DNA of 11,863 nt, taken from a virus (taxonomy: Duplodnaviria > Heunggongvirae > Uroviricota > Caudoviricetes). Location of the stretch: the IMG/VR virus record IMGVR_UViG_2693429779_000014, positions 1-11,863 of that record; one strand, given 5' to 3'. Below, piece after piece: positions 1 through 11,863 of this stretch. Both the position numbers and the translations under genes were made by a program. The notes below the pieces were generated by a model. The model saw nothing but the letters and a program-made list of their open reading frames with translations. It searched no databases and was not told the DNA's origin. How positions within the stretch are numbered: the stretch's first letter is position 1; each line of letters opens with the position of its first letter.

Positions 1-183
1 TACACTAAATCAGTAAGTTGGCAGCATCACCCCGCCACAGAACAATTATTGCTTTTGCCGTTGATGACAATAAAGTTTTTATCGCAGGCGTATACCACGG
101 TGGGCAAATCTATGAAACCGATTTTTTATCCAGTGCACCGTAAAACCCCCATCCTTCAGGGCGTGGCGGATATCAAACTTTGG

Positions 184-1266
184 TCATTTTCTCTGGCTGA
201 TCTTTACCGGATAACCATCCCGAAGATCAATTAAGTGCTCCGGTTCAGAAGCAAACCATGCATAAGATCCCCACGCCAATTCTGGTATTGCCTTTTTAAA
301 AGGCAGAGCACTTCTGTCCATAAATGCCGTAAGGAATGCAAGATTTTTCTCGCTGAACCCAGCGTCAATAGCCAAATGAGTGAGAGTAACTTTTCGTTCC
401 CTGTTTATAGGCCCATCTGTCGCAACTACTTCAGTGAAAACTACAAGCATGTCCGAACCCGTTCGGTCCTCTCCCAAATCAATCAAAATAATATCTGGAA
501 GTGCTTTTGAGGCATCAATATTCAGCCCCAATGCTTTTGCCAATACATCATCCTGAGCAACAACTTTATTCCCGGATTCAGACAACCAGAGCACAGTTGG
601 ATTCTTAAGAAAATTAGGAGCAAAAACTTCGATGACGGCCTTAGCTATTGTACTTGACGGGCCCGGAGCTAAAGTTCTCTTCTCTCCATTTGGGAAAGTG
701 ACGACTACGGCATCAGCAGCAATCACTGCCCCTGATTTCAATAAACGCAACCTAGCAAGAGCGGCTTTGTTCAAATGATTTTCTTGCCAGGAACTTATTG
801 CACTCAGCAGCGAATCTCCTTCAAGCCCGGCATCAAAGAGTGCTGCAAAAGAGCGATTCAAACTGTAACGAGGACGAGAGGATGTGGTGGGTATACCTTT
901 ACGCTCAACAATTGCATTGCAAGGTATTAGGCCATTTTTTATAGTTTCATCACGTATTGGCTCACGCGTATTTTCCGCATACCATGCATCAGCAGGCCTT
1001 ATCTTTTGTTTAGAGAAAGTCATCTTTACCCAGCTTTCTCTGGACGCATCATCAGTAAGAGCAGCCTGCGAATCTCCCATACTTACAACCTGGCTGGGCC
1101 TTATCCATCGCCCCAGCCCCTCAACCGCACCAGCATAAAACATGACAAAAATTGTTTTTGCAGCTATTTCCCGAATTAAATATCCACGATTCTCAGTCCC
1201 TTCAGGGAAAATTAATTGTAATCTTTCCCGGATAACATTCAATGGGGGAACAACAGGCAGATTCAT
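184..1266 (-). CDS. Unassigned 360-aa partner of the adjacent methyltransferase; putative restriction endonuclease-like protein (possibly BsuBI/PstI-like, not verifiable here)
   Basis: 360-aa minus-strand ORF. Its ATG (1266-1264) overlaps the TGA stop (1265-1263) of the upstream methyltransferase gene (ATGA), and a GGAG lies about 10 nt upstream inside the MTase 3' end. No catalytic motif can be assigned with certainty; the stretch DIILIDLGEDRTGSDMLVVFTEVVATD is compatible with a PD-(D/E)xK-type core. The functional call rests on operon context. Confidence 0.45.
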   Translation of the reverse strand: MNLPVVPPLNVIRERLQLIFPEGTENRGYLIREIAAKTIFVMFYAGAVEGLGRWIRPSQVVSMGDSQAALTDDASRESWVKMTFSKQKIRPADAWYAENTREPIRDETIKNGLIPCNAIVERKGIPTTSSRPRYSLNRSFAALFDAGLEGDSLLSAISSWQENHLNKAALARLRLLKSGAVIAADAVVVTFPNGEKRTLAPGPSSTIAKAVIEVFAPNFLKNPTVLWLSESGNKVVAQDDVLAKALGLNIDASKALPDIILIDLGEDRTGSDMLVVFTEVVATDGPINRERKVTLTHLAIDAGFSEKNLAFLTAFMDRSALPFKKAIPELAWGSYAWFASEPEHLIDLRDGYPVKISQRK

Positions 1267-3095
1267 GCAATCATCACTCCATAGAAACCAGCGATAGTTC
1301 TCTCAATAATCCGTCTGTGGACGCCAGCATCAATTAACGATTGAATCTCCATCACCTGCTCCAGAGAAGGCAACGGGATTGAATTCAATTCATAGGCCGA
1401 AACAGCAACACTTCCGCTTATACACCTGAACGCCCGATCGACAACATGCGAATTAAGTAGCATATCAATAACATCAGGGCGAACCGCAGAGAACAATCCG
1501 TTTGAATATACAATATTAATATGGTTTTCAACTACTACGCCACCAGTTTCATCTATAAATCCCTGAGGTAAAATTGCCGCTAAAATCCTTCTGTCCTGTT
1601 CCTTCGATGTTGTCCGCTGAACAAGCACACATTCAGATTTTGTCACAAGGAAACCCTGTTGTGGGGTTATATCGATATAGGGAACATGATTTTTTCTGTC
1701 TGCACTAAAACGAAAACCAGCTGAAGTTATTGATTCCGCCCAGACTAATGGGTAGCTATTTTTTCCTTTCGTCGTACGCAACTGCGACTTAAATCGATTC
1801 CAGACTAACTGACCTGTAGAGACTGAGTATCCCAGATCAGCTAAACGCGTAGACATCTGTTTTAATACATTAAGAAAACAGGCATCATCTTTAACGCGTG
1901 GCAAAAGCCACGTTGCTCCACCTTTTTCTATATCAACATTACCTATTTTCTCAATTTTTGCTTTGTTCAACCCCTTAGGGACAAGTGAGGATACCTGGGC
2001 CCGAACTTTATGTTCTCCCGCCTTGAATGCTGTCAACATTGTTTCCTGGAGAACATCGTCAAAGACCCCATCCCTGTCAGTGACGAAATCAAGGGCATAC
2101 GGAGTAGTTTTTTCGGTCAAAAGGGTTCGCAGCGCGGTGAAATACTGCCCACCAAGAAAAGAAGTTGGCGTAAGAAATGCAATAACTCCTGTTTTCTCTT
2201 TAACCATGCGAACAGCTAAGTCGGTGAACAATCCATATAGATTTGCATGACCAAATAACGAACGAGAATATTTTTCTCTCGTTTTAATATCGAGAGTGAC
2301 ACGTCCGTAAGGCGGATTCCCTACCACAAGATCATAACCAGAAAATTTATCTTGCTGAAGCGCATCAGCAACAATAATTGTATCTTCAGGCAATCTACGT
2401 TTTACCTTTACACATAGTGGCATTAGTACAGATTCGAGCAATACCAAACTCATCCAAGCCGCAAATGGATCGATTTCTATCCCCTTTAAACGACGACTGA
2501 TTCTCCTCAACATCCATTCAGGGGAAGACCCCTTGTCTTTTTTTAACATTCGAATGGCTACTGGTGCCAAAAATGCACCGCCACCACACGCAGGATCAAT
2601 AACCGATGCATGAGAAAAATCAACACCAGACTTTTCAGCCAGGTCCAAGAGACGCGCTACCAAAGGTGGGGGGGTATAGTAAGCCCCCAATTCCGAACGG
2701 TAAGCGGATGGCAGCATTACCGTATAAATTGACCCAATCAGATATCCAGCGTCCTCCGCCGGAAATTGAGCAATAAGCTCACCTGTTCGTTCAGCGAGCT
2801 CGCGTGCATCACATGGAATGTCTTCTATGTAAACAGTGTGCGGTACTGCCCTCATTTTAATGCTGCTTTTTTGCTTTTTTGCAAGGGTATCCCAATATGC
2901 AGCTACGATGCTGAAGCAGTATGAGCGGGCATGCATCAACCTTGACTGCCCGGTTTTGTAATTGCCCGCATAACCTTTGGCCATGGCTTTACAAGTTTGA
3001 TATCTTTCCAGATTAGAAAACTCATTATCTGTAAAAAAATCAAAATGTTGCACATTCATAATGTAAAATCCTAATGTATCAAACATGCGGGCCAT
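1263..3095 (-). CDS. N6-adenine DNA methyltransferase, gamma-class (Eco57I/TaqI-like catalytic domain with a C-terminal target-recognition region of about 250 aa)
   Basis: The translation carries GAYYTPP, then the SAM-binding motif I VIDPACGGGAFL, then the catalytic motif IV DLVVGNPPYG, in gamma-class order. The first ATG is at 3095; a better-placed start is the ATG at 3059 (MNVQHF...), which has AGGA 9 nt upstream. Confidence 0.85.
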   Translation of the reverse strand: MARMFDTLGFYIMNVQHFDFFTDNEFSNLERYQTCKAMAKGYAGNYKTGQSRLMHARSYCFSIVAAYWDTLAKKQKSSIKMRAVPHTVYIEDIPCDARELAERTGELIAQFPAEDAGYLIGSIYTVMLPSAYRSELGAYYTPPPLVARLLDLAEKSGVDFSHASVIDPACGGGAFLAPVAIRMLKKDKGSSPEWMLRRISRRLKGIEIDPFAAWMSLVLLESVLMPLCVKVKRRLPEDTIIVADALQQDKFSGYDLVVGNPPYGRVTLDIKTREKYSRSLFGHANLYGLFTDLAVRMVKEKTGVIAFLTPTSFLGGQYFTALRTLLTEKTTPYALDFVTDRDGVFDDVLQETMLTAFKAGEHKVRAQVSSLVPKGLNKAKIEKIGNVDIEKGGATWLLPRVKDDACFLNVLKQMSTRLADLGYSVSTGQLVWNRFKSQLRTTKGKNSYPLVWAESITSAGFRFSADRKNHVPYIDITPQQGFLVTKSECVLVQRTTSKEQDRRILAAILPQGFIDETGGVVVENHINIVYSNGLFSAVRPDVIDMLLNSHVVDRAFRCISGSVAVSAYELNSIPLPSLEQVMEIQSLIDAGVHRRIIERTIAGFYGVMIA

Positions 3096-3309
3096 AACAT
3101 CTCATGGTGGCGCATAGCAAACTGGCCCGAAGAATATCACGCACCAAGTCGATCTCATAACCCGTTATGACAATAAATCTTTGTAGCTGAACTCACTTGG
3201 TGATTTGTCAATCATTCCTGGCCTCCAGTTCGTCCTGAATCTCTTTATCGAGTTCACCGTATTTGTTAGTCCTCATCACTCACGACTTGACTTCCAGAAA
3301 TAACCTTGA

Positions 3310-3645
3310 TTATTCGGGGCTATATTTTGTCACCCTGCGTATCCGCGCTTTCGCATTACGCTCAATCTGGATTAGCTTTTCTATATTTTTTCGCCTTTCC
3401 CGCTCCTCCTGGCGCAAGAGCCTTACATCATCTGCCAGTCTGGTTTCTCTTTTCGCCACAGAGAGCATCCAGTCAAATGGCTCCACAACTGCACCGCAAA
3501 TTTTACAGCGGACCTGACGCTCTTTTTCGTCAACCCGGACAGAGGCGTGATGGCAATATGGTCTTTCCGATGGCTCATAAAGAAAATTAACCTGATTACG
3601 AGGGTTATCCTCTTTTACCGGAAATAAAACACTGAAATTCTGCAA
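3310..3645 (-). CDS. Hypothetical protein, probably the 3' remnant of a gene truncated by the IS3-associated deletion; contains a Cys/His cluster (CHH...CKIC)
   Basis: 111-aa ORF whose first codons (3645 down to about 3620) lie in IS-derived sequence, so the native N-terminus is likely lost. No recognisable family; the C-terminal half is Arg/Glu-rich and looks coiled. Confidence 0.25.
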   Translation of the reverse strand: MQNFSVLFPVKEDNPRNQVNFLYEPSERPYCHHASVRVDEKERQVRCKICGAVVEPFDWMLSVAKRETRLADDVRLLRQEERERRKNIEKLIQIERNAKARIRRVTKYSPE

Positions 3646-3741
3646 CTGCGTAAGGCGTTAAATGAAGCTCGCCTTGAGCGAGATATATTAAAAAAAGCAA
3701 CAGCGTATTTTGCACAGGAGTCGCTGAAAAATACGCGTTAA
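3620..3741 (+). pseudogene. IS3-family orfA, 3' fragment only
   Basis: Only about 40 C-terminal codons of OrfA are present; an upstream in-frame stop sits at 3617-3619. Confidence 0.6.
3690..3697 (+). promoter_or_regulatory. A7G slippery run in the orfA/orfB overlap (programmed -1 frameshift signal typical of IS3-family elements)
   Basis: AAAAAAAG at 3690-3697 lies where the orfA frame (stop 3739-3741) and the orfB frame (open from 3678) overlap. Confidence 0.5.
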
Positions 3742-3776
3742 TCGAACAATGGCGACAACAATTTCCCATTGAAGCG

Positions 3777-4595
3777 ATGTGTCAGGTATTTGGTGTATCC
3801 AGGAGCGGTTATTACAACTGGGTACAGCATGAACCCTCAGACAGAAAACAAAGTGATGAGCGGCTAAAACTGGAGATTAAGGTGGCACATATCCGCACTC
3901 GCGAAACATATGGAACCCGGCGGCTCCAGACGGAGCTGGCAGAGAATGGCATCATCGTTGGTCGTGACCGACTGGCACGTCTTCGTAAGGAGCTAAGGCT
4001 ACGCTGTAAGCAGAAACGCAAGTTCAGAGCGACTACGAACTCGAACCACAATCTGCCAGTTGCGCCAAATCTGCTGAACCAGACGTTCGCTCCTACAGCA
4101 CCAAATCAGGTCTGGGTGGCGGACCTGACGTATGTTGCCACACAGGAGGGATGGTTGTACCTCGCTGGCATCAAAGATGTTTATACGTGCGAAATTGTCG
4201 GCTACGCCATGGGAGAGCGCATGACAAAAGAGCTGACAGGTAAAGCCCTGTTTATGGCGCTCAGGAGCCAGCGCCCACCTGCCGGGCTAATCCACCACTC
4301 TGATCGAGGTTCACAGTACTGCGCATACGATTACCGGGTCATACAGGAGCAGTCTGGTCTGAAAACATCAATGTCGCGTAAAGGTAACTGTTACGACAAC
4401 GCTCCGATGGAAAGCTTCTGGGGAACGCTGAAAAATGAGAGCCTGAGCCACTATCGTTTTAATAACCGGGATGAAGCCATCTCAGTAATACGGGAATACA
4501 TTGAGATTTTCTACAATCGTCAGCGTCGTCACTCTCGTCTGGGGAATATCTCCCCGGCAGCCTTCAGGGAAAAATATCATCAGATGGCTGCTTAA
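3777..4595 (+). CDS. IS3-family transposase OrfB (DDE integrase catalytic core)
   Basis: 272 aa from the first ATG; the frame is open from 3678, consistent with expression as an OrfAB fusion. Contains the D..D..E context (...VWVADLTYV..., ...HHSDRGSQY..., ...YDNAPMESFWGTLKNE...) and the C-terminal ...RQRRHSRLGNISPAAFREKY. Confidence 0.85.
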   Translation: MCQVFGVSRSGYYNWVQHEPSDRKQSDERLKLEIKVAHIRTRETYGTRRLQTELAENGIIVGRDRLARLRKELRLRCKQKRKFRATTNSNHNLPVAPNLLNQTFAPTAPNQVWVADLTYVATQEGWLYLAGIKDVYTCEIVGYAMGERMTKELTGKALFMALRSQRPPAGLIHHSDRGSQYCAYDYRVIQEQSGLKTSMSRKGNCYDNAPMESFWGTLKNESLSHYRFNNRDEAISVIREYIEIFYNRQRRHSRLGNISPAAFREKYHQMAA

Positions 4596-5008
4596 AAAAA
4601 GAACAAATGGTAGTGTCCGCTATTGCCAGTACACCTCATAGCTTCGCTCTTCCGGCACTCGCGACAGATTATATTCAGGCGCCTGTCGTAGCGGCGTATT
4701 TCTCCGTCTGGTAATGACCAGATAAGGTCAGGATCAACCACAACCGGTTTCTTCACCTTTACCCTCGATAGCTTTTTGCGGGCGTTTTGCCAGTCTTTAT
4801 GAGCCTGTTCAGAGGGAAATACCCCGTAGCCAGAATTATATACATCACCACTTGCGACCAGTTCTATGCATAAGCGACCGACAGACGCACGACTGATACC
4901 TGTTTCATCTGACAACTGCCGAATCGTGACCCGACCGTCCTGATGCACGAGTTCCACAATTCGCGTCTTCAGTTCTTCCCGCTGTTCGGGAGTAAAAGGT
5001 TTCGCCAT
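4592..5008 (-). CDS. Ren-like phage protein, copy A; 3' end altered next to the IS
   Basis: Starts MAKPFTPEQREEL... with AGGAGG upstream. Paralogous to the 5907..6389 ORF through ...DPDLIWSLPDGEIRRYDR..NIICRECRKSE, after which the two diverge. The ECRKSE region resembles the ECRQSAAMKRVL C-terminus I recall for lambda Ren (from memory). Confidence 0.5.
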   Translation of the reverse strand: MAKPFTPEQREELKTRIVELVHQDGRVTIRQLSDETGISRASVGRLCIELVASGDVYNSGYGVFPSEQAHKDWQNARKKLSRVKVKKPVVVDPDLIWSLPDGEIRRYDRRLNIICRECRKSEAMRCTGNSGHYHLFFF

Positions 5009-5022
5009 AAATCCTCCTGAAA

Positions 5023-5769
5023 CTACTTAACAACCCTCGAATGGCTAACATTCGGACGCCAGCTCTCCCAGTTAAAATTCACCCAGCGCCCGCCGTTCAT
5101 GACCATGCGATCCATCACCCGCTCGCCGAGCAATGTTTTCATCACCTCATAGTTCAGGTTTGTCAGCATCCCCACGCTGCGCATCGACGCTGTCCGGCGA
5201 TCAACAATCTGGTGCAGCACCACCTGCTCGTTTTTCGTCTCGCGCTGAATGCCAATTTCATCAAGAACCAGCAGATCCACTTCGCACAGCTCCCGCAAAA
5301 ATTTTTCGCCTGACTGCCCGTCGTCATAGCTGGCGTGCAGGGCGCTCATAACATCAGCCACGGTAACCACAATCACTGTCTGACCGTCTTTCAGCAGGCG
5401 ATTCCCGATAGCTGCCGCTAAGTGATTCTTCCCGGTACCAGGTTTTCCGCTGAACGCAAAATTTGTACACCCGGTCATCAGTTCATCGGCGATGGATTTC
5501 GCCTGGCTTAACGCGTATCGCTGGCCGTCGTTCTGCACCTGGTAATTCGCAAACGAGCATTTACGGTGCAACGGCTGGATGCCTGAGCGATTCAGAATTT
5601 TTTCCACCCGCAACTGGCGATTCAGGCGGTTGATCTCCTCGCTACGTTTCTGGCCTTCAGCAAGTTGCCACTCGCGCCACTCCGCTACCGTTCTGAATGG
5701 GGCGGTTACATGTGGCGGGGTCAGTCGGCGGATGCGTTCCAGAACGCCGCCTGTCGCAATATTTTTCAT
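5023..5769 (-). CDS. DnaC-like AAA+ helicase loader (phage replication protein), copy A
   Basis: 248 aa. Walker A FSGKPGTGKNHLAAAIG and Walker B DLLVLDEIG, with end-to-end collinearity to the E. coli DnaC sequence as I recall it (...NRSGIQPLH...CSFANY...MLTNLN...LGERVMDRM...). GGGGG-type SD upstream. Confidence 0.9.
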   Translation of the reverse strand: MKNIATGGVLERIRRLTPPHVTAPFRTVAEWREWQLAEGQKRSEEINRLNRQLRVEKILNRSGIQPLHRKCSFANYQVQNDGQRYALSQAKSIADELMTGCTNFAFSGKPGTGKNHLAAAIGNRLLKDGQTVIVVTVADVMSALHASYDDGQSGEKFLRELCEVDLLVLDEIGIQRETKNEQVVLHQIVDRRTASMRSVGMLTNLNYEVMKTLLGERVMDRMVMNGGRWVNFNWESWRPNVSHSRVVK

Positions 5770-5775
5770 GGTCCG

Positions 5776-6000
5776 TTACCCCCTGAAGCCTGGCGGGATC
5801 GCACTGTCCGGCAACGAGACGGTGTTAACCTGTCGGAGCAACGTCTCAGGCCGAACACCTTTCGGCGCGAACAGGCCCTGGTATTCATTGGCGATGCTGT
5901 GTCGAATCACCTGCTCAGGTGTAAAACCCTGCTGACGGAATTTTTCCAGTTCCCGTATCGCCCCGTTAGCGCCCTGCTCCGTTCGAATCGGTTTTCGCAA
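5776..6000 (-). pseudogene. 3' remnant of a second initiator gene (DnaT-like C-terminal domain only)
   Basis: The 74-aa frame ends ...VNTVSLPDSAIPPGFRG*, matching the C-terminus of the full-length initiator at 7905..8969 (...VNHISEPDTEIPPGFRG*). The N-terminal domain and iteron region are missing. It sits 6 nt upstream of DnaC-like copy A, the same spacing as in the intact module. Confidence 0.6.
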
Positions 6001-6389
6001 TGCCTGAGTACACGCTGCATAACTTCACTCTTCCGGCACTCGCGACAGATTATGTTCTGATGTCTGTCGTAGCGGCGTATTTCTCCGTCTGGTAATGACC
6101 AGATAAGGTCAGGATCAACCACAGATGGTTTCTTCAGATTTGCCCTTGAGAGTTTTTTGCGGGCGTTTTGCCAGTCCTTACGAGCCTGTTCAGACGGGAA
6201 TAACCCGTAGCCAGAGTTGTATACATCCCCACTGGCAACCAGCTCTCTGGCGAGAACGCTTATTAAATATCTTGTCGCCCCGGTTTTAGCTTCCAGTTGT
6301 CGTAACGTCTCGCGCCCACTCTGGCGTACGAGTTCAACAACCTGCCCCTTAATTTTTTCCCGCTCTTCCTGTGTAAATACTTTTGCCAT
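5907..6389 (-). CDS. Ren-like phage protein, copy B
   Basis: Start at ATG 6389 (MAKVFTQEEREKIK...), 15 nt after the upstream gene's stop. Contains ...ECRKSEVMQRVL..., but the frame then reads on into the initiator remnant with no stop until 5907, so the 3' end is probably not native. Confidence 0.55.
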   Translation of the reverse strand: MAKVFTQEEREKIKGQVVELVRQSGRETLRQLEAKTGATRYLISVLARELVASGDVYNSGYGLFPSEQARKDWQNARKKLSRANLKKPSVVDPDLIWSLPDGEIRRYDRHQNIICRECRKSEVMQRVLRHCENRFERSRALTGRYGNWKNSVSRVLHLSR

Positions 6390-6404
6390 AAGCGCCCCCG
6401 GCAA

Positions 6405-7130
6405 TCACTTTTCCGACACAATACGACCGGAGGAATCGACAATCTGTCGAACAATATCCCGGTGCTTGTTCAGCTCCCGCAACGCGGCGCAGACACGCTC
6501 CCACTTCTGGACATGACTTTTCGCCCGACGCAGTTCGCGGTTTGCCATATGCAGCGATGGTAAAACCAGGTCATCCGCTTGCGTTTCGGTGAACGATGGC
6601 AACGACTGCACAATGTCCGCCACAGTTTCTGTTTTAATTTCTTCCTGTGTTGCAGCTTCCTGTACCGGTAACGCAACACCTGCTGGCTGAGGAAAGACTT
6701 TACCATCCGTTTCCGCTATGGATGCGGCTTTCGGCTCTGCCGGTAAATCAGCGCCCGGTATGCAGTACCGAAATTTACCGCCCTGATTCACGCGAATCAG
6801 ACGCCCTTTGCTGATTGCCATGGCCAGCGATGAATTCGCCCGGCGGGAGGTAATCCCGAACATCAGTGCCAGCTCATCCGCCGTTTGTGGGCCATGTTGT
6901 TCAATCGCCTCAGTCAGCATTTGCGCTGTCACTTTCGGTACCGGTGACACTGGTTCACTTTCACCAGCCTGAATCAGCCACCACATCGAACCCTTGTTAT
7001 CCGCTTCACCACGGCGCTTCAGTTTCCACAGTTCGTTGACCGCATCTTCACGGCTGATTCCAAGGCGGGACGCCACCACATGTGAAGAGGCTCTTTTCAG
7101 TGCTTTCAGTGCGTCAAATACAGTTTCCAT
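6405..7130 (-). CDS. Hypothetical phage protein with two N-terminal winged-helix-like segments and an acidic linker
   Basis: The six-frame track starts at 7148 (TTG), but the ATG at 7130 ([12 protein letters not shown]...) has GGAGG 8 nt upstream. Two wHTH-like segments (...[24 protein letters not shown]... and ...[31 protein letters not shown]...). Lies between the DnaC-like and Ren-like genes. Confidence 0.6.
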
Positions 7131-7151
7131 TAAAACATCCTCCAACAAAAA

Positions 7152-7898
7152 TTACTTCACAACTCCCGGAAAGCTGACATTTGAACGCCAGCTATCCCAG
7201 TTAAACGTCACCCACCGACAACCGTTCATGGTCATGCGGTCCATAATCCTCTCACCAAGAAGCGTGCTCATTGCGGCATGATTCAGGTTTGTTAACATCC
7301 CGACACTGCACAGTGATGCTGTCCGGCGATCAATTATCTGGTGCAATACCACCTGCTCGTTTTTCGTCTCCCGCTGAATGCCTATTTCATCCAGGACCAG
7401 CAAATCAACCCCGCAAAGCTCCTGTAAAAATTTTTCACCGGATTTGCCGTTGTCGTAGCTGTCATGCAACACGCTCATGACATCAGACTCGGTGACGATA
7501 ATCACGCTGCGCCCCTTCGCCATCAGCCGGTTACCCATCGCCGCTGCAAGGTGATTTTTCCCGGTGCCGGTTTTACCGCTGAACACAAAATTCGTGCACC
7601 CGGTCATCAGTTCGTCAGCTATGGATTTGGCCTGGCTCAGCGCGTATTTTTGCCCGTCGTTCTGCACCTGATAATTCGCAAACGAGCATTTGCTGTGCAG
7701 AGGCTGGATGCCCGAACGATTCAGGATTTTTTCCACCCGCAACTGGCGATTCTGGCGGTTAATCTCCTCGCTGCGTTTTCGTCCTTCAGCAAGTTGCCAT
7801 TCCCGCCACTCCTCCACCGTCCGGTACGGTGGAACCGCCCCCTGTGGTGCAAGTCTGTGAATACGTTCAAGAACCCCGGCTGCCGCAATGTTTTTCAT
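7152..7898 (-). CDS. DnaC-like AAA+ helicase loader (phage replication protein), copy B
   Basis: 248 aa. Walker A FSGKTGTGKNHLAAAMG and Walker B DLLVLDEIG; about 85% identical to copy A at protein level but with many synonymous DNA differences. Starts 6 nt after the initiator stop. Confidence 0.9.
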   Translation of the reverse strand: MKNIAAAGVLERIHRLAPQGAVPPYRTVEEWREWQLAEGRKRSEEINRQNRQLRVEKILNRSGIQPLHSKCSFANYQVQNDGQKYALSQAKSIADELMTGCTNFVFSGKTGTGKNHLAAAMGNRLMAKGRSVIIVTESDVMSVLHDSYDNGKSGEKFLQELCGVDLLVLDEIGIQRETKNEQVVLHQIIDRRTASLCSVGMLTNLNHAAMSTLLGERIMDRMTMNGCRWVTFNWDSWRSNVSFPGVVK

Positions 7899-7904
7899 GC
7901 CACA

Positions 7905-8969
7905 TCACCCCCTGAATCCCGGCGGAATTTCGGTATCCGGTTCAGAAATATGATTCACACAACGCTGGTTGTTCGTGCCGCTTACCGGGAGCAACCAGGG
8001 GTTTTCAAAATTCCGGTCCGGCCCAAAAAACGTCGTCGCTCGCTGAACAAATTCCGTTCCCGCTTTCCCGGTCGCCGCCAGGTATCTCGCGTAACGCCTC
8101 ACACCATCCAGCATGGTCTCTGGTGGCACCCCCTCGCGCAATCTGGCCTTCCAGGCACTGAATGCGGATTTCTTCGGGTTTGCCCCGGCACGCAACGGGT
8201 ATTCCCGCCAGACCTGTTCGAACACATCCGGATAATCCACTCGTCCCACAGGCTGCCCGGTGTTTTCCGGGGCTACCCGATCGGCTTCCCGCTGAATGGC
8301 GGAATCGGCTTCAGGCTGCTGCAGTTGGAGTGATTGCTCCGGCCTTGCGGTCATCACCTGCTGCACAGCGCCCGAATCGGCTTTCAGCGCATACGCTGAA
8401 TCGGCTTCCGGTGTCGAGCCTGCTGGCTGACCAGGATTGACGGTCTGAACATCCCCTGCCTGGTTCGTGGCGTTTTTTACGCCATGGACCATAGTGTTTT
8501 GATCTTCTTTATCTGTATCTTTATCTGTATCTGTCGTGACTCGTCGTGACATGTGCGTGACATTTCGTGACGCGCCGTGACAATCGCCATTTTGTTCCCG
8601 CTTTCTTTCCCTCTCTCGCTGCGCCCTCTTGCGCTCTGCAGGAGATTTTGCGGTTTGCGAAATATTGCCGTTGTCCTCTTTAAGCACCTGGCGTTTTTCC
8701 CATCCAGTGATTAAATCACCATCAAGTACCCGCCCCTGCATCGTCTGCAAAATTGAATCAATTACCTCTTCTGTCACGTCGAGCGCACTTGCCAAATCTT
8801 CTGTCGTGACATCAATGTGACCTCGCGTGACATTTCGTGACGCGCTCACCAGGAGGTGGATATACACTGCCATCACTGTTGCAATTGGCTGCCCTGACAC
8901 CCTGGCAATTGTTCGCCACTTAGGGTCATTTGGCATGTCATGCCATAATCTGAGCCAGGCGTTAGCCAT
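7905..8969 (-). CDS. Phage replication initiator-like protein (YdaU-like N-terminal domain, low-complexity linker, DnaT-like C-terminal domain)
   Basis: The track starts at GTG 8975; the ATG at 8969 (MANAWLRLWHDMPNDPKW...) has GAGG 5 nt upstream. The C-terminus ...SEPDTEIPPGFRG matches the end of E. coli primosomal protein DnaT as I recall it. The gene body contains the iteron clusters listed below, and a DnaC-like gene follows immediately. Confidence 0.75.
   Translation of the reverse strand: MANAWLRLWHDMPNDPKWRTIARVSGQPIATVMAVYIHLLVSASRNVTRGHIDVTTEDLASALDVTEEVIDSILQTMQGRVLDGDLITGWEKRQVLKEDNGNISQTAKSPAERKRAQRERERKREQNGDCHGASRNVTHMSRRVTTDTDKDTDKEDQNTMVHGVKNATNQAGDVQTVNPGQPAGSTPEADSAYALKADSGAVQQVMTARPEQSLQLQQPEADSAIQREADRVAPENTGQPVGRVDYPDVFEQVWREYPLRAGANPKKSAFSAWKARLREGVPPETMLDGVRRYARYLAATGKAGTEFVQRATTFFGPDRNFENPWLLPVSGTNNQRCVNHISEPDTEIPPGFRG
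8535..8581. repeat. Iteron cluster 2: five direct CGTGAC repeats at 10-11 bp phasing, preceded by the tandem repeat TTTATCTGTATC x2 (8508-8531)
   Basis: CGTGAC begins at 8535, 8545, 8556, 8566 and 8576, all in the same orientation. The cluster is inside the initiator's linker-coding region. Confidence 0.55.
8805..8845. repeat. Iteron cluster 1: four direct (C/T)GTGAC repeats at 10-11 bp phasing, plus one inverted copy (GTCACG, 8773-8778)
   Basis: The repeats begin at 8805, 8816, 8826 and 8836. The 21-mer GCGTGACATTTCGTGACGCGC is exactly repeated at 8825-8845 and 8555-8575. Confidence 0.5.
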
Positions 8970-9040
8970 ACTCACCTCTTCTGATACCGAATCTTTTTAC
9001 TCACGAGTTGCCGGGAGCGATTCGATATGGCTATTGTCAG

Positions 9041-9466
9041 TCAATGTACTGCCACAGCATTTCCTGCCGGGCCACCACGGTTCATCTGATTGAAACCGGC
9101 GATTGCCACTGCGACAAAATCATCAGCGTCTCTCACCAGTCGTTCATGCGTCTCCACCAGTTCCCGAAAATAAGCTGAACTGTGGCTGCGCATTCGAGCC
9201 ACCAGCGGAGGTGGCATTGCCCTTTCGATCGCAGGTAACAACGCCTGAATTTTTTCAACAGCGTCAGGGGTGTCTTTATCCAGCCAACGGAAAATCTTTT
9301 GGGTGTTGAGATAAAGCGTGTTGTGCTTGCTGTCGTTATGCAGAACCGGAAACGTCATTCCCAGTTCGAAATAAACCCTGGTTATTTCAGCTGCCGGAAC
9401 TTTTTCACCGTCCGGATGCGCCCAGGCTTTCATCGCCATGCGGATGTGTTCATGCTTGATTTTCAT
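9041..9466 (-). CDS. YdaT-like protein (occupies the CII position after the Cro-like gene)
   Basis: 141 aa starting MKIKHEHI.... Its ATG overlaps the TGA of the upstream Cro-like gene (ATGA at 9463-9466). The position and order match the ydaS-ydaT-ydaU-ydaV arrangement of Rac-type prophages as I recall it. Confidence 0.55.
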   Translation of the reverse strand: MKIKHEHIRMAMKAWAHPDGEKVPAAEITRVYFELGMTFPVLHNDSKHNTLYLNTQKIFRWLDKDTPDAVEKIQALLPAIERAMPPPLVARMRSHSSAYFRELVETHERLVRDADDFVAVAIAGFNQMNRGGPAGNAVAVH

Positions 9467-9726
9467 GAATCAACCCCCGCCGATGGTTGTGTGTTAGCCT
9501 GAAACTCAGCAGGCAAGCCGTCAGTTGGGTTGGGGTAGGTTTTACTGTCAATCTCATGTGGGGTCACCACCCATCCCGTTGCTTCACACCAACGTAATAT
9601 TTTTTCTCCTGTAAGTTTTGCACGCCCCGTTATAACGTGGCTGACCATCCCTTGGGATGCGCCAACAATCTCAGCAAATGAACTCTGGGTTATATGAAAA
9701 TGATGCAAATATTCTCCAAGATTCAT
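9463..9726 (-). CDS. Cro-like / YdaS-like small HTH regulator
   Basis: The track starts at 9753 (TTG). The ATG at 9726 (MNLGEYLHHFHITQSSFAEIVGASQGMVSHVITG...) has GGGCGGA upstream. It shows an HTH pattern (SQ..A...G.SQ..VS) and is divergent from the repressor gene. Confidence 0.7.
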   Translation of the reverse strand: MNLGEYLHHFHITQSSFAEIVGASQGMVSHVITGRAKLTGEKILRWCEATGWVVTPHEIDSKTYPNPTDGLPAEFQANTQPSAGVDS

Positions 9727-9762
9727 AATCCGCCCTATGTGATGTGTTACCAATGCATAATT

Positions 9763-9825
9763 AATAGCACTGTTATTTTTAAAAGTAAATAGTGATGCTA
9801 TTTCAAAGTGATTAGCAATCTTATT
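9763..9825. promoter_or_regulatory. OR-like region: three operator-like 15-bp sites with divergent promoters
   Basis: Sites AATAGCACTGTTATT (9763-9777), AATAGTGATGCTATT (9788-9802) and a weaker ATTAGCAATCTTATT (9811-9825), spaced 24-25 bp. Rightward promoter candidates: -35 TTTCAA (9801-9806) and -10 TAGAAT (9825-9830). Leftward candidates: -35 TTTACT (complement of 9784-9789) and -10 TATTAA (complement of 9761-9766). Confidence 0.5.
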
Positions 9826-9837
9826 AGAATTGGATGT

Positions 9838-10338
9838 ATGAAAAGAAAATCATTGTCAGACACCGACCTCAACGCCGCCAGAAGACTGAAAGAAATCTGG
9901 ATGGCAAAGAAATCTCAGTTGGGATTGACTCAGGAACGTGCGGCGGAAATTATGGGGTTTTCAACACAAGGGGCGGTAAGTCACTACCTAAATGGTCAAA
10001 CCCCACTAAACCTTGAGGCTGTTCTAAAGTTTGCTGGCTTACTGAAAGTTCCCCCTGAGTCAATCAGGCCAGACATGGTAGATTTGCTGCAAATTGCAAG
10101 GATGTATTGTCGAGAACCACAGCAAGATAACATAGTCGCATTACCAGCAGACACAGAACAAACAGAGGATGAACTACCGTTTGCCGTAGAGCCGATGGAA
10201 CGAGATTTAATCCATACGTTCAGAGCTTTTCCGAAAGAAGATCAAGAACACATGCTTCAGGAGATGAAAGATAAAAAAGAATCAATGGATCGTACGGTTG
10301 CGCGGTGGTTAGCTGCACAAAAAGGCCGTCGCGCCTAA
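9838..10338 (+). CDS. cI/PaaR-like HTH (XRE-family) repressor; candidate prophage immunity repressor and regulator of the downstream toxin-antitoxin pair
   Basis: The track starts at GTG 9808; the ATG at 9838 (MKRKSLSDTDLNAARRLKEIWMAKKSQLGLTQERAAEIMGFSTQGAVSHYLNG...) gives 166 aa. It has an N-terminal HTH (LTQERAAEIMGFSTQGAVSHY), is divergent from the Cro-like gene, and carries an acidic C-terminal region. Confidence 0.7.
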   Translation: MKRKSLSDTDLNAARRLKEIWMAKKSQLGLTQERAAEIMGFSTQGAVSHYLNGQTPLNLEAVLKFAGLLKVPPESIRPDMVDLLQIARMYCREPQQDNIVALPADTEQTEDELPFAVEPMERDLIHTFRAFPKEDQEHMLQEMKDKKESMDRTVARWLAAQKGRRA

Positions 10339-10357
10339 ATCAGAGGAGATATGTAAA

Positions 10358-10552
10358 ATGAGTACAGTCCTTTCCCCAATGGTTTCAGAATTTGAGACAG
10401 TTGAGCAAGAAAATAGTTACAACGAATGGCTGCGGGCCAAAGTAGCAGCAAGCCTCGCGGATCCCCGCCCGGCGATTCCGCATGATGAGGTAATGGCGGA
10501 AATGGAACAAATTATTGCCCAAATTGCTGCTGCAACTCACAGAGGTGAATAA
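10358..10552 (+). CDS. Small antitoxin, PaaA2-like (partner of the ParE-family toxin)
   Basis: 64 aa with GAGGAG 7 nt upstream. The stop overlaps the toxin start (TAATG at 10550-10554). The sequence ...SPMVSEFETVEQENSYNEWLRAKVA... resembles the PaaA2 antitoxin of E. coli O157 prophages as I recall it. Confidence 0.6.
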   Translation: MSTVLSPMVSEFETVEQENSYNEWLRAKVAASLADPRPAIPHDEVMAEMEQIIAQIAAATHRGE

Positions 10553-10842
10553 TGTTACCCGTTTTATGGCTACCATCTGCTCGTGATGATTTGCGCCAGA
10601 TCGTAGCCTACATAGCTAAAGAAAATCCCGCGGCAGCACGCAGAATGAAAATTCGAATTGAAACATCCGTTTTGCCGCTCACAGAGCATCCTTACCTGTA
10701 TCCTCCAAGCGAGCGAGTTCTTGGTCTTCGTGAAATTGTAACTCATCCTAACTACATCATCCTTTACCGAGTAACAGCATCAAGCATAGAAGTAGTAAAT
10801 ATTGTGCATTCTCGAAGACAGTATCCAGGCAAAAACAGTTAA
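10552..10842 (+). CDS. parE: ParE/RelE-superfamily toxin (ParE2-like)
   Basis: 96 aa with the characteristic pattern W.P.A..DL..I..YIA..NP.AA......I......L...P..G.......GLREIV.....I.LYRV......V..I.H.RR. Translationally coupled to the upstream antitoxin. Confidence 0.8.
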   Translation: MLPVLWLPSARDDLRQIVAYIAKENPAAARRMKIRIETSVLPLTEHPYLYPPSERVLGLREIVTHPNYIILYRVTASSIEVVNIVHSRRQYPGKNS

Positions 10843-10858
10843 TTATTCCCGCCGACAG

Positions 10859-10884
10859 AACCACCTTAGGGTGGTTTTTTCTTG
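10859..10884 (+). terminator. Intrinsic (Rho-independent) terminator of the repressor-antitoxin-toxin operon
   Basis: Stem AACCACC (10859-10865), loop TTAG, stem GGTGGTT (10870-10876), then a T-tract (10877-10880), 17 nt after the ParE stop. Confidence 0.7.
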
Positions 10885-10898
10885 CCCCAACAAAAAAC

Positions 10899-10940
10899 AA
10901 TAGCGATGCTATTTACATCAAAAAAAATAATGATGCTATT
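10899..10940. promoter_or_regulatory. OL-like region: two operator-like 15-bp sites with a candidate rightward promoter
   Basis: AATAGCGATGCTATT (10899-10913, a perfect AATAG-N5-CTATT palindrome) and AATAATGATGCTATT (10926-10940), spaced 27 bp. A -35-like TTTACA (10912-10917) overlaps the first site, as at the OR-like region; the -10 is not clear. Confidence 0.45.
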
Positions 10941-11121
10941 GTTTCAGGCGTCAACCCACCCCGCCCCACAGAATGCAGGGCAATACTTCGAGTTACCAGA
11001 CAGTGGTCAGGGGTTAAGTAGCCAGCCCGAGGCGTAAGAACATGACGGCAGGGTTCAATCTTTAACTATGCAGCAGGTTTTTTGTTCCGCCACCCCGGCG
11101 TTAAGGGGAAATGAGGTCAGC

Positions 11122-11274
11122 ATGGATACTATCGATCTTGGCAACAACGAATCTCTGGTGTGCGGCGTGTTCCCTAACCAGGATGGAACGTTTACCGCCA
11201 TGACGTATACCAAAAGCAAAACGTTTAAAACCGAATCTGGCGCGCGTTGCTGGTTAGCCAGAAACACTGACTGA
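11122..11274 (+). CDS. Hypothetical small protein (50 aa), first gene of the candidate early-left operon
   Basis: ATG at 11122 with GAGG 5 nt upstream (MDTIDLGNNESLVCGVFPNQDGTFTAMTYTKSKTFKTESGARCWLARNTD). The track's longer version (11068) lacks an SD. Confidence 0.4.
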   Translation: MDTIDLGNNESLVCGVFPNQDGTFTAMTYTKSKTFKTESGARCWLARNTD

Positions 11275-11285
11275 TGAGGCTGACG

Positions 11286-11651
11286 ATGGAATTTAAAGAT
11301 TTACCGTCTGATGTACAGAAAACAGCAGCTCATACATTGCATTCTGTGCTGCGAGAAATCGGGAAAGATATTGCAAGCGAGCCAGCAAAAGATCTGGCCC
11401 GGAAAATCAAGACCGCTTTCGTTGAGCTTTATAATGTTGGCACTGACTCTGAAACTGTCGAGACCAAGACCGTAAGTTCACCAATATTCTCACTTGAGCC
11501 AAGCGTATTATCAGGTGAAATATGCACCGAGATTTCCAGCGAACTGCTTCCGGTAATACGAGAAGCAATTCGCCGTCGCGGTTTGGATGGAAGTTATGAT
11601 CATGACGTTCTGCAAGTTCTCAGGACAATGGTGACTTCACTGGGGATTTGA
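11286..11651 (+). CDS. Hypothetical protein (121 aa)
   Basis: ATG at 11286 (MEFKDLPSDVQKTAAHTL...) with GAGG 6 nt upstream, 9 nt after the stop of the upstream small ORF. No family recognised. Confidence 0.5.
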   Translation: MEFKDLPSDVQKTAAHTLHSVLREIGKDIASEPAKDLARKIKTAFVELYNVGTDSETVETKTVSSPIFSLEPSVLSGEICTEISSELLPVIREAIRRRGLDGSYDHDVLQVLRTMVTSLGI

Positions 11652-11863
11652 TCCCTGCGTCCTCTAAGCTTTTGATATAGCGGTCCTCCAAGAAGCGGTA
11701 AATTTTGTCGAAATCATCTTTTCCCTCTGGTTTATTCAGAGGATTACAGGACCCGTAAGTAGCGGCATACATTTCAACCGTTTGGTAATGACTCCAACTT
11801 ATTGGTAGTGTTTTATGTTCAGATAATGCCCGATGACTTTGTCATGCAGCTCCACCGATTTTG

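Follow-up and report, generated by a model that had tools for sequence, protein, structure and literature searches.

The immunity region of prophage CP-933P (Sp12) of Escherichia coli O157:H7 comprises PaaR2, YdaS and YdaT together with paaA2-parE2 (Jurenas et al. 2021, PMC8630535; Prolic-Kalinsek et al. 2023, PMC9986795). PaaR2 and YdaS were found by electrophoretic mobility shift assay, DNase footprinting and gfp fusions to bind the repeats of its right operator (OR) and left operator (OL), and they regulate the promoters PR, PRM and PL (PMC8630535). OR1-3, OL1-3, the three promoters and bistability were demonstrated in the same work. The paaR2 mRNA was shown experimentally to be leaderless, as described for lambda cI, PaaR2 was reported as octamers, and addiction was shown for paaA2-parE2 (PMC8630535). 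The YdaT motif, TTGATT-N6-AATCAA, was footprinted (PMC9986795). The locus described here is contained in an 11,863 nucleotide stretch of DNA from a virus of the Caudoviricetes (IMG/VR record IMGVR_UViG_2693429779_000014, positions 1 to 11,863), which is referred to as the window. Three operator-like sites in the window, S1 to S3, very probably make up the right operator (OR1-, OR2- and OR3-like sites) of a lambdoid immunity switch in a cryptic prophage that is widespread in Shigella sonnei and occurs in some E. coli. Sequence comparison makes the switch a relative of that of CP-933P (PaaR2/YdaS/YdaT) but heteroimmune to it; the N-terminal domain of its repressor is lambda-like, and its operator sequence appears to be new. 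No paper describing this repressor or operator was found in the literature searched, with PaaR1 of Hallez et al. 2010 outside the comparison.

The control region is bordered by divergent genes for two helix-turn-helix (HTH) proteins, the repressor (9838-10338, plus strand) and a Cro-like protein (9463-9726, minus strand). It is 111 bp long (9727-9837) if the Cro-like protein starts at the ATG at 9726, which is the start used by the Prokaryotic Genome Annotation Pipeline in relatives. The initial annotation had given a length of 84 bp; position 9753 is a mechanical TTG extension of the open reading frame (ORF). The same annotation had reported three 15-bp sites resembling AATAG-N5-CTATT, and a motif search recovered all three where it had placed them. 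S1 is at 9763-9777 (AATAGCACTGTTATT, one mismatch), S2 at 9788-9802 (AATAGTGATGCTATT, no mismatches) and S3 at 9811-9825 (ATTAGCAATCTTATT, two mismatches). The sites are 25 and 23 bp apart, a correction of the 24-25 bp first reported. The pooled half-sites fitted a consensus of AATAGCA-W-TGCTATT, with an invariant core of AATA-N7-TATT, better than the AATAR-NNRTG-CTATT proposed earlier.

The motif was compared with chance expectation over the whole window. At up to two mismatches there were eight matches compared to 4.4 expected, which is unremarkable. Because this count is not significant alone, the case for the sites rests on the stricter threshold, on clustering and on comparative data. At up to one mismatch there were four matches compared to 0.24 expected, and none of 200 shuffles reached four. 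All four fell in two intergenic clusters. A scoring matrix was trained on 17 distinct sites from seven lineages other than that of the window, and no S3 site was used. The matrix scores were 20.9 for S1 and 17.4 for S2, 19.1 and 15.4 for two sites of a downstream OL pair (OLa and OLb, respectively) and 10.4 for S3. These five sites ranked first to fifth of 11,849 positions in the window (mean score -27.6, standard deviation 8.9). S3 is the weakest of them but is taken to be real because it ranked fifth, with 10.4 compared to 6.2 for the next best position. The scores predict an intrinsic order of S1 > S2 > S3, as for lambda CI.

The sites were then compared in loci encoding repressors that share the N-terminal domain of the window repressor and its recognition helix, TQGAVSHYLN. 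These were drawn from an E. coli genome collection and from contigs encoding repressor relatives. The E. coli loci L001-L003 and L012 encode 166-amino-acid (aa) forms of the repressor with 75-99% identity. The Salmonella locus L005 encodes a 154-aa repressor with 47% identity, followed by HigB/HigA instead of PaaA/ParE. Repressors of a 243-255-aa class with an extra HTH are encoded in L007, where HipA_2/DUF3037 follow, in L009, where no toxin-antitoxin (TA) family gene follows, and in L013, where the following genes had no Pfam match. Six non-redundant loci (42 kb) contained 27 matches at up to one mismatch compared to 1.5 ± 1.2 expected. All 27 were inside OR or OL clusters, with nothing elsewhere in the 5-6.7 kb per locus.

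Three related dyads about 2.2-2.4 helical turns apart are kept in eight lineages with repressor identity down to 47%. Conservation of the sites in prophages with the same repressor, which the initial annotation had made a test of its proposal, was therefore found. The OR centres lie at -68, -43 and -20 (±1) from the repressor ATG, and S1 is at -68 in all eight. These positions are kept despite a cargo of PaaA/ParE, HigB/HigA, HipA_2/DUF3037 or none. The third OR site is at the same position in the 166-aa E. coli forms and the window, where it falls below the one-mismatch threshold. In the eight-lineage alignment 23 of 24 outer operator positions (AATA/ATTA, TATT) were invariant; there were few invariant positions in the operator centres and almost none in the 5' untranslated region of the Cro-like gene. 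The half-sites of S2 are invariant between lineages and the centres differ (TGATG, CGATG, CATAG, CATTA). When half-sites were pooled, positions 1, 3 and 4 of A-A-T-A were the same in 46 of 46 and position 2 in 43 of 46, the three exceptions being ATTA left halves of S3. Positions 5-7 were less constant (G 30/46, C 31/46, A 30/46). S3 has ATTA instead of AATA as its left half in all lineages and, with this T at position 2, scores lowest of the OR set throughout.

A consensus scan called a PRM-like promoter on the plus strand at 9802-9830, with a -35 of TTCAAA (9802-9807), a 17-nt spacer and a -10 of TAGAAT (9825-9830). S3 fills the spacer, and the last base of S2 is the first base of the -35. 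The -10 is 7 nt from the repressor ATG in the window, and TAGAAT or TAAAAT ends 6-7 nt 5' of the ATG in all eight lineages. The stretch before the repressor ATG lacks a canonical Shine-Dalgarno sequence in the window and in the eight-lineage comparison. Because the -10 ends 7 nt before the ATG, the repressor transcript is predicted to start at or next to the A of the ATG, giving a leaderless mRNA. With such a start the centre of S2 is at -43 (-42 in two lineages). Lambda OR2 has the same position relative to PRM. On the minus strand a PR-like promoter for the Cro-like/YdaT operon was placed by eye at 9761-9789, with a -35 of TTTACT (9789-9784), a 17-nt spacer and a -10 of TATTAA (9766-9761). 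The other lineages have a similar layout of TTTACT, TTTACA or TTGACT (the last in Salmonella), 17 nt and TATTAA or TATTTG, and the layout matches that of the PL-like promoter described below. A PR-like promoter at this position would be overlapped by S1, which covers its -10 and spacer, and by S2, which shares 2 bp with its -35; the scan-called PRM-like promoter is covered by S2 and S3. All of the sequence-only tests favored the OR1-OR3-like arrangement over divergent candidate promoters that had been suggested by the initial annotation.

The overlap with promoters allows another explanation, in which the repeats are a recurring AT-rich promoter architecture (-35/-10 context, UP-like) or sites for a host nucleoid protein. 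The region is AT-rich, and the PR-like and PL-like promoters have hexamers in common that overlap the ends of the sites, so some of the conservation could be promoter conservation. However, the dyad symmetry is kept while the centres vary, and S3 is within a promoter spacer where no hexamer accounts for it. The motif is also absent from heteroimmune relatives in the same hosts and with the same downstream genes. There were no matches to AATAG-N5-CTATT in CP-933P/PaaR2, in a locus with a 132-aa PaaR-like repressor or in Qin DicA, and the 132-aa control locus carries the same PaaA/ParE/DUF1391 cargo as the window. Since these three heteroimmune controls gave no matches, the distribution of the motif matches that of the DNA-binding domains and is independent of host, cargo and the C-terminal module of the repressor. 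The promoter or nucleoid protein explanation was given very little probability compared to an operator set.

The repressor has 166 aa, and HTH_3 and HTH_31 were its sole Pfam matches. Homology to the lambda CI N-terminal domain extends over residues 2-81 and takes in the basic arm (phmmer against PDB 1lmb, E=2.9e-9). In an AlphaFold model (mean predicted local distance difference test score 78) five helices form the N-terminal domain, residues 93-111 are a disordered linker and the C-terminus folds as a two-helix hairpin. The closest structures by Foldseek were 3kz3 (template modeling (TM) score 0.93, root mean square deviation 1.0 Å, 40% identity) and 1lmb (TM 0.86), with TM values normalized to the free N-terminal-domain targets. 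All of the top ten PDB matches were lambda CI N-terminal structures or hybrids (TM 0.82-0.93, about 40% identity). Gln32, Glu33, Glu37 and Asn52 align with lambda Gln33, Glu34, Asp38 and Asn52, and the arm is KRK. The recognition helix TQGAVSHYLN is invariant across the repressor family. Lambda CI contacts sigma-70 region 4 through the acidic residues Glu34 and Asp38. The acidic residues matching these contacts are retained in the alignment, with Glu33 being Glu or Asp across the family and Glu37 invariant. No S24 peptidase domain was found in the repressor by Pfam or in the model, and the resemblance to lambda CI does not extend beyond the N-terminal domain. As it has no S24 domain the repressor is predicted not to be inducible by RecA-stimulated self-cleavage.

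The locus has much in common with lambda OR/OL as regards layout. It has divergent repressor and cro genes and three pseudo-palindromic sites, 25 and 23 bp apart compared to 24 and 23 bp in lambda. Its promoter-distal site is beside the PRM -35 at about -42/-43 and a weak third site is within PRM. The repressor mRNA is leaderless in lambda and predicted to be so here. A second operator cluster is found at a PL, on the far side of accessory genes that share the transcript of the repressor, and the repressor N-terminal domain is homologous to that of CI (about 40% identity, arm KRK). The operators themselves differ, with a 15-bp core and a half-site of AATAGCA here compared to 17 bp and TATCACC in lambda. 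Unlike lambda, the locus has two recognizable OL sites and not three, a short helical-hairpin C-terminal domain in place of the S24 self-cleaving domain, a Cro-like protein of the HTH_3 type and YdaT in place of CII.

The C-terminal 44 aa of the repressor are 52% identical to the C-terminus of PaaR2. Qin DicA aligned only over the C-terminal 51 aa, with 29% identity. Identification of the repressor as simply PaaR2 or DicA was rejected, as the C-terminal module alone is in common. This module of about 45 aa, with a consensus of roughly LLxxFxAFPxEDQxxMLxEMKxKKE...ARWLAAQK, was seen on repressors with unrelated DNA-binding domains. Its carriers are the window repressor, PaaR2 and 132-aa PaaR-like proteins and, more distantly, DicA (9838-10338 in the window was compared with 2501-2872 in L004 and 2435-2842 in L011). 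It is covered by phrog_5736 in PHROGs, and no Pfam domain is reported there.

A further combination of domains was observed in the 243-255-aa repressors (L007 3001-3735, L009 3031-3768 and L013 3001-3732; P0014, P0018 and P0020-P0022). These have the lambda-like N-terminal domain, a second HTH and the common C-terminal hairpin. The second HTH resembles the N-terminus of the 132-aa PaaR-like repressors. The operator of the 132-aa type was not found at OR or OL of the loci of the 244-aa two-HTH repressors, where AATAG-N5-CTATT sites are present.

The Cro-like protein has 87 aa and was assigned to phrog_35 and, weakly, to Pfam HTH_3. Homologues with 54-83% identity were found in all five of the other motif-bearing loci aligned (L002, L003, L005, L007 and L009), so that the protein always co-occurs with the motif in the aligned loci. 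Its predicted recognition helix, SQGMVSHV, has Q-G-x-V-S-H in common with TQGAVSHY of the repressor, and QGMVSHV is invariant in the aligned loci. No alignment was obtained with CP-933P YdaS or with DicC. The sites could be used by only one regulator, with the repressor binding them and the Cro-like protein acting on targets elsewhere or being inactive, which would make the locus a simple autoregulated repressor. The motif is accompanied by both proteins in every lineage, which leaves their targets inseparable, and the Pfam HTH score of the Cro-like protein was below the curated cut-off (20.8 compared to 23 bits). Against this, both predicted recognition helices have Q-G-x-V-S-H, and no other conserved palindrome was found in the intergenic region in the eight-lineage alignment. 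In CP-933P and lambda both proteins footprint the same region (PMC8630535). Use by a single regulator was considered unlikely. The Cro-like protein probably binds the same sites as the repressor because no other conserved dyad was found. Opposite preferences of the two proteins for these sites, which would make the switch bistable, have some indirect support from the relatedness of their recognition helices.

The gene downstream of that for the Cro-like protein (9041-9466, minus strand) encodes a YdaT-family protein (Pfam YdaT_toxin; PDB 3c4r, E=3.9e-79; 8bt1, E=3.1e-70) belonging to phrog_163, a CII-like activator. A copy of the YdaT operator at 9456-9473 (TTGATTTTCATGAATCAA) has no mismatches to TTGATT-N6-AATCAA. 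It lies across the junction between the Cro-like gene and ydaT, covering the end of the first and the start of the second, a position that corresponds to the OM/PRE region in CP-933P. With this perfect operator present, the CII-like arm is held in common with CP-933P and the CI and Cro arms are not.

The repressor is followed on the plus strand by genes for a PaaA-type antitoxin (10358-10552; Pfam PaaA2; PDB 3zbe, E=1.4e-23) and a ParE toxin (10552-10842; Pfam ParE_toxin; PDB 5cw7, E=6.7e-37). paaA and parE are predicted to be co-transcribed with the repressor, in the position of lambda rexAB. The gene order is that of CP-933P, namely ydaT, cro-like, OR, repressor, paaA, parE and OL/PL. The two loci have homologous YdaT, PaaA and ParE proteins, a perfect YdaT operator, a similar repressor C-terminus and a leaderless repressor start (predicted here). 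The DNA-binding domain of the repressor is unrelated to that of PaaR2, and the Cro-like protein is without similarity to YdaS. The operators are GTTTAGTAA-type repeats in CP-933P compared to AATAGCA-W-TGCTATT here, and the control regions share no motif. The experimental data are those for CP-933P. From these differences the two loci appear to be heteroimmune.

The slot between the repressor and OL, in the rexAB position, was occupied by different cargo in different lineages, with the OL pair always after the cargo. It contains PaaA/ParE in the window (10358-10842), HigB/HigA in Salmonella L005 (3612-4339), HipA_2 and DUF3037 in L007 (3787-5360) and no TA pair in L009 (3769-4300).

The operon of the repressor, paaA and parE is ended by a terminator-like hairpin with a U-run (10857-10881, plus strand). 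A terminator scan gave no call for a hairpin after parE; direct folding supports it (-15.1 kcal/mol, z=-3.1), and the stem is kept in relatives. Rfam gave no match in the window, so no known RNA element accounts for the region. Downstream of the operon is the OL pair, which had escaped notice in the initial annotation. Motif search and matrix placed OLa at 10899-10913 (AATAGCGATGCTATT) and OLb at 10926-10940 (AATAATGATGCTATT). In relatives the half-sites of OLa are kept with a variable centre (CGATG, CATTA, CACTG), and OLb is AATAGCAGTGCTATT or AATAGTAGTGGTATT. The pair was present in eight of eight lineages, 24-28 bp apart. It overlaps a PL-like promoter (10912-10942, plus strand), OLa at the -35 (TTTACA, 10912-10917) and OLb at the extended -10 (TG-c-TATTGT, 10934-10942). 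The locus thus has a second operator cluster at a leftward-type promoter beyond the repressor operon. The promoter was called by the scanner in the closest E. coli relative (L001), where the spacer is 17 nt. In the window it was not called, and there a run of A two bases longer than in this relative makes the spacer 19 nt.

The PL-like promoter reads into ydfA (DUF1391, 11122-11274). The ydfA leader is homologous and nearly identical to that of Qin, in dicA-ydfA, and relatives continue with ydfB, ydfC and dicB. DicA also carries the C-terminal module. Unlike the present locus, Qin has no TA pair after dicA and no copy of the motif in its control region, and the DNA-binding domain of DicA and DicC are dissimilar to the proteins here.

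The length of the A-run between the OL sites was observed to vary among loci that are nearly identical otherwise. It is A6 in E. coli RMDEC465, A7 in S. sonnei L016 and 53G (L017), A8 in the window (10920-10927, within 10918-10936) and A9 in L015; the tract is at 3400-3440 in L001 and from 11062 in L015-L017. As a result the PL-like spacer ranges from 17 to 20 nt and the distance between the OL sites from 25 to 28 bp. Slippage, promoter decay or homopolymer sequencing error could each account for the variation. It is doubtful, but conceivable, that the A6-A9 tract is a slipped-strand tuner of the PL-like -35/-10 spacing and of OL helical phasing. If this were true, expression of the ydfA/dicB-type operon and any OR-OL looping by oligomers of the non-cleavable repressor would differ between lineages.

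The proposed operation of the switch, in which binding, order of occupancy, activation, looping and transcription starts are those that we infer from the arrangement of the sites, is as follows. A dimer of the 166-aa repressor would bind each 15-bp palindrome (half-site AATAGCA) through its lambda-CI-like N-terminal domain. With S1 and S2 occupied, transcription of the Cro-like/YdaT operon from the PR-like promoter would be blocked. When bound at S2, in a class II position as for lambda CI at PRM, the repressor may stimulate the PRM-like promoter. S3, within the spacer of that promoter, would give negative autoregulation at high repressor levels. The Cro-like protein would probably use the same sites and shut off PRM. 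Through the OL pair about 1.1 kb downstream, the ydfA (dicB-type) operon would be repressed at its PL-like promoter. The PaaR2-type C-terminal module may support cooperativity and bridging of OR and OL by repressor oligomers over about 1.1 kb, since PaaR2, reported as octameric, has the same hairpin. YdaT at 9456-9473 would provide a CII-like establishment input (PMC9986795).

The exact repressor sequence was found in about 6,000 blocks of an assembly collection, in Shigella sonnei and including strain 53G. S. sonnei copies of the locus are bordered by ydfZ and dms/ynf-type genes, surroundings that on the K-12 map are the Qin neighborhood. At least 80% of a 2.3-kb module was present in 72 of 5,426 complete E. 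coli genomes, two with about 96% identity and the others among the matches listed with about 82%. The repressor was not found in isolated phages of a phage collection, where the best match was lambda CI with 31% identity, and DNA matches of those phages to the window were limited to its flanks. Two contig scans for repressor relatives gave no confirmed locus.

Several points weigh against an operator set of a working lambdoid switch. Because the prophage has been rearranged and survives as a remnant, some of the circuit may have ceased to work. S3 has two mismatches in the window, and its left half is further altered (ATTAA) in 80%-identity relatives. The PR-like -10, TATTAA, is poor and was not called by the scanner because its last base is not T. 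Two OL sites were recognizable and not three, and the PL-like promoter may be crippled by its 19-nt spacer. The CP-933P precedent transfers by architecture only, as neither the repressor DNA-binding domain nor the Cro-like protein is homologous to its counterpart there (PaaR2 and YdaS, respectively).

The first of these points can be extended, such that the sites are ancestral operators and the circuit in the rearranged cryptic prophage is a relic without regulation. The remnant is joined to a second prophage fragment and an insertion sequence (IS) fragment, and the PL-like spacer is 18-20 nt in S. sonnei strains compared to 17 nt in E. coli. However, the five ORFs for the repressor, the Cro-like protein, YdaT, PaaA and ParE are intact and the YdaT operator is perfect. 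Such a relic is also at odds with the abundance of the exact repressor in the assembly blocks and with an OR sequence that is identical in S. sonnei L016 and L017. With a ParE toxin linked to it, the repressor operon would be under selection to remain expressed. Complete loss of regulation was judged improbable, and a right-operator set is the preferred interpretation of S1-S3.

The remainder of the window contains duplicated genes. A DnaC-like gene is present in two diverged copies (5023-5769 and 7152-7898, 81% aa identity), as is a Ren-like gene (4592-5008 and 5907-6404, 73% aa identity). S. sonnei 53G has a single copy of each. An IS3-family transposase orfB (3777-4595) lies beside the duplicated genes with no orfA-sized ORF adjacent. 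The region 3777-8975 looks like two lambdoid remnants joined at the IS fragment. At the edge of the prophage remnant are a BsuBI/PstI-type restriction endonuclease (184-1266) and an N6-adenine/Eco57I-type methyltransferase (1263-3095), the Pfam families of the 184-3095 genes being taken from identical S. sonnei loci.

The analysis yields a specific operator sequence, AATAGCA-W-TGCTATT at five sites, and a wiring diagram of the immunity region, which is found in a very large number of Shigella sonnei genomes and in some E. coli. This region is predicted to control a ParE-family toxin operon and, via the PL-like promoter, a dicB-type cell-division-inhibitor operon. The conceptual gain over lambda and CP-933P is small, the architecture being known and the DNA specificity apparently previously undescribed. 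The CP-933P-type switch is found in several heteroimmune versions in which the DNA-binding domains and operators are swapped. What the versions have in common is the C-terminal module and the YdaT arm, and their toxin-antitoxin cargo is exchangeable.

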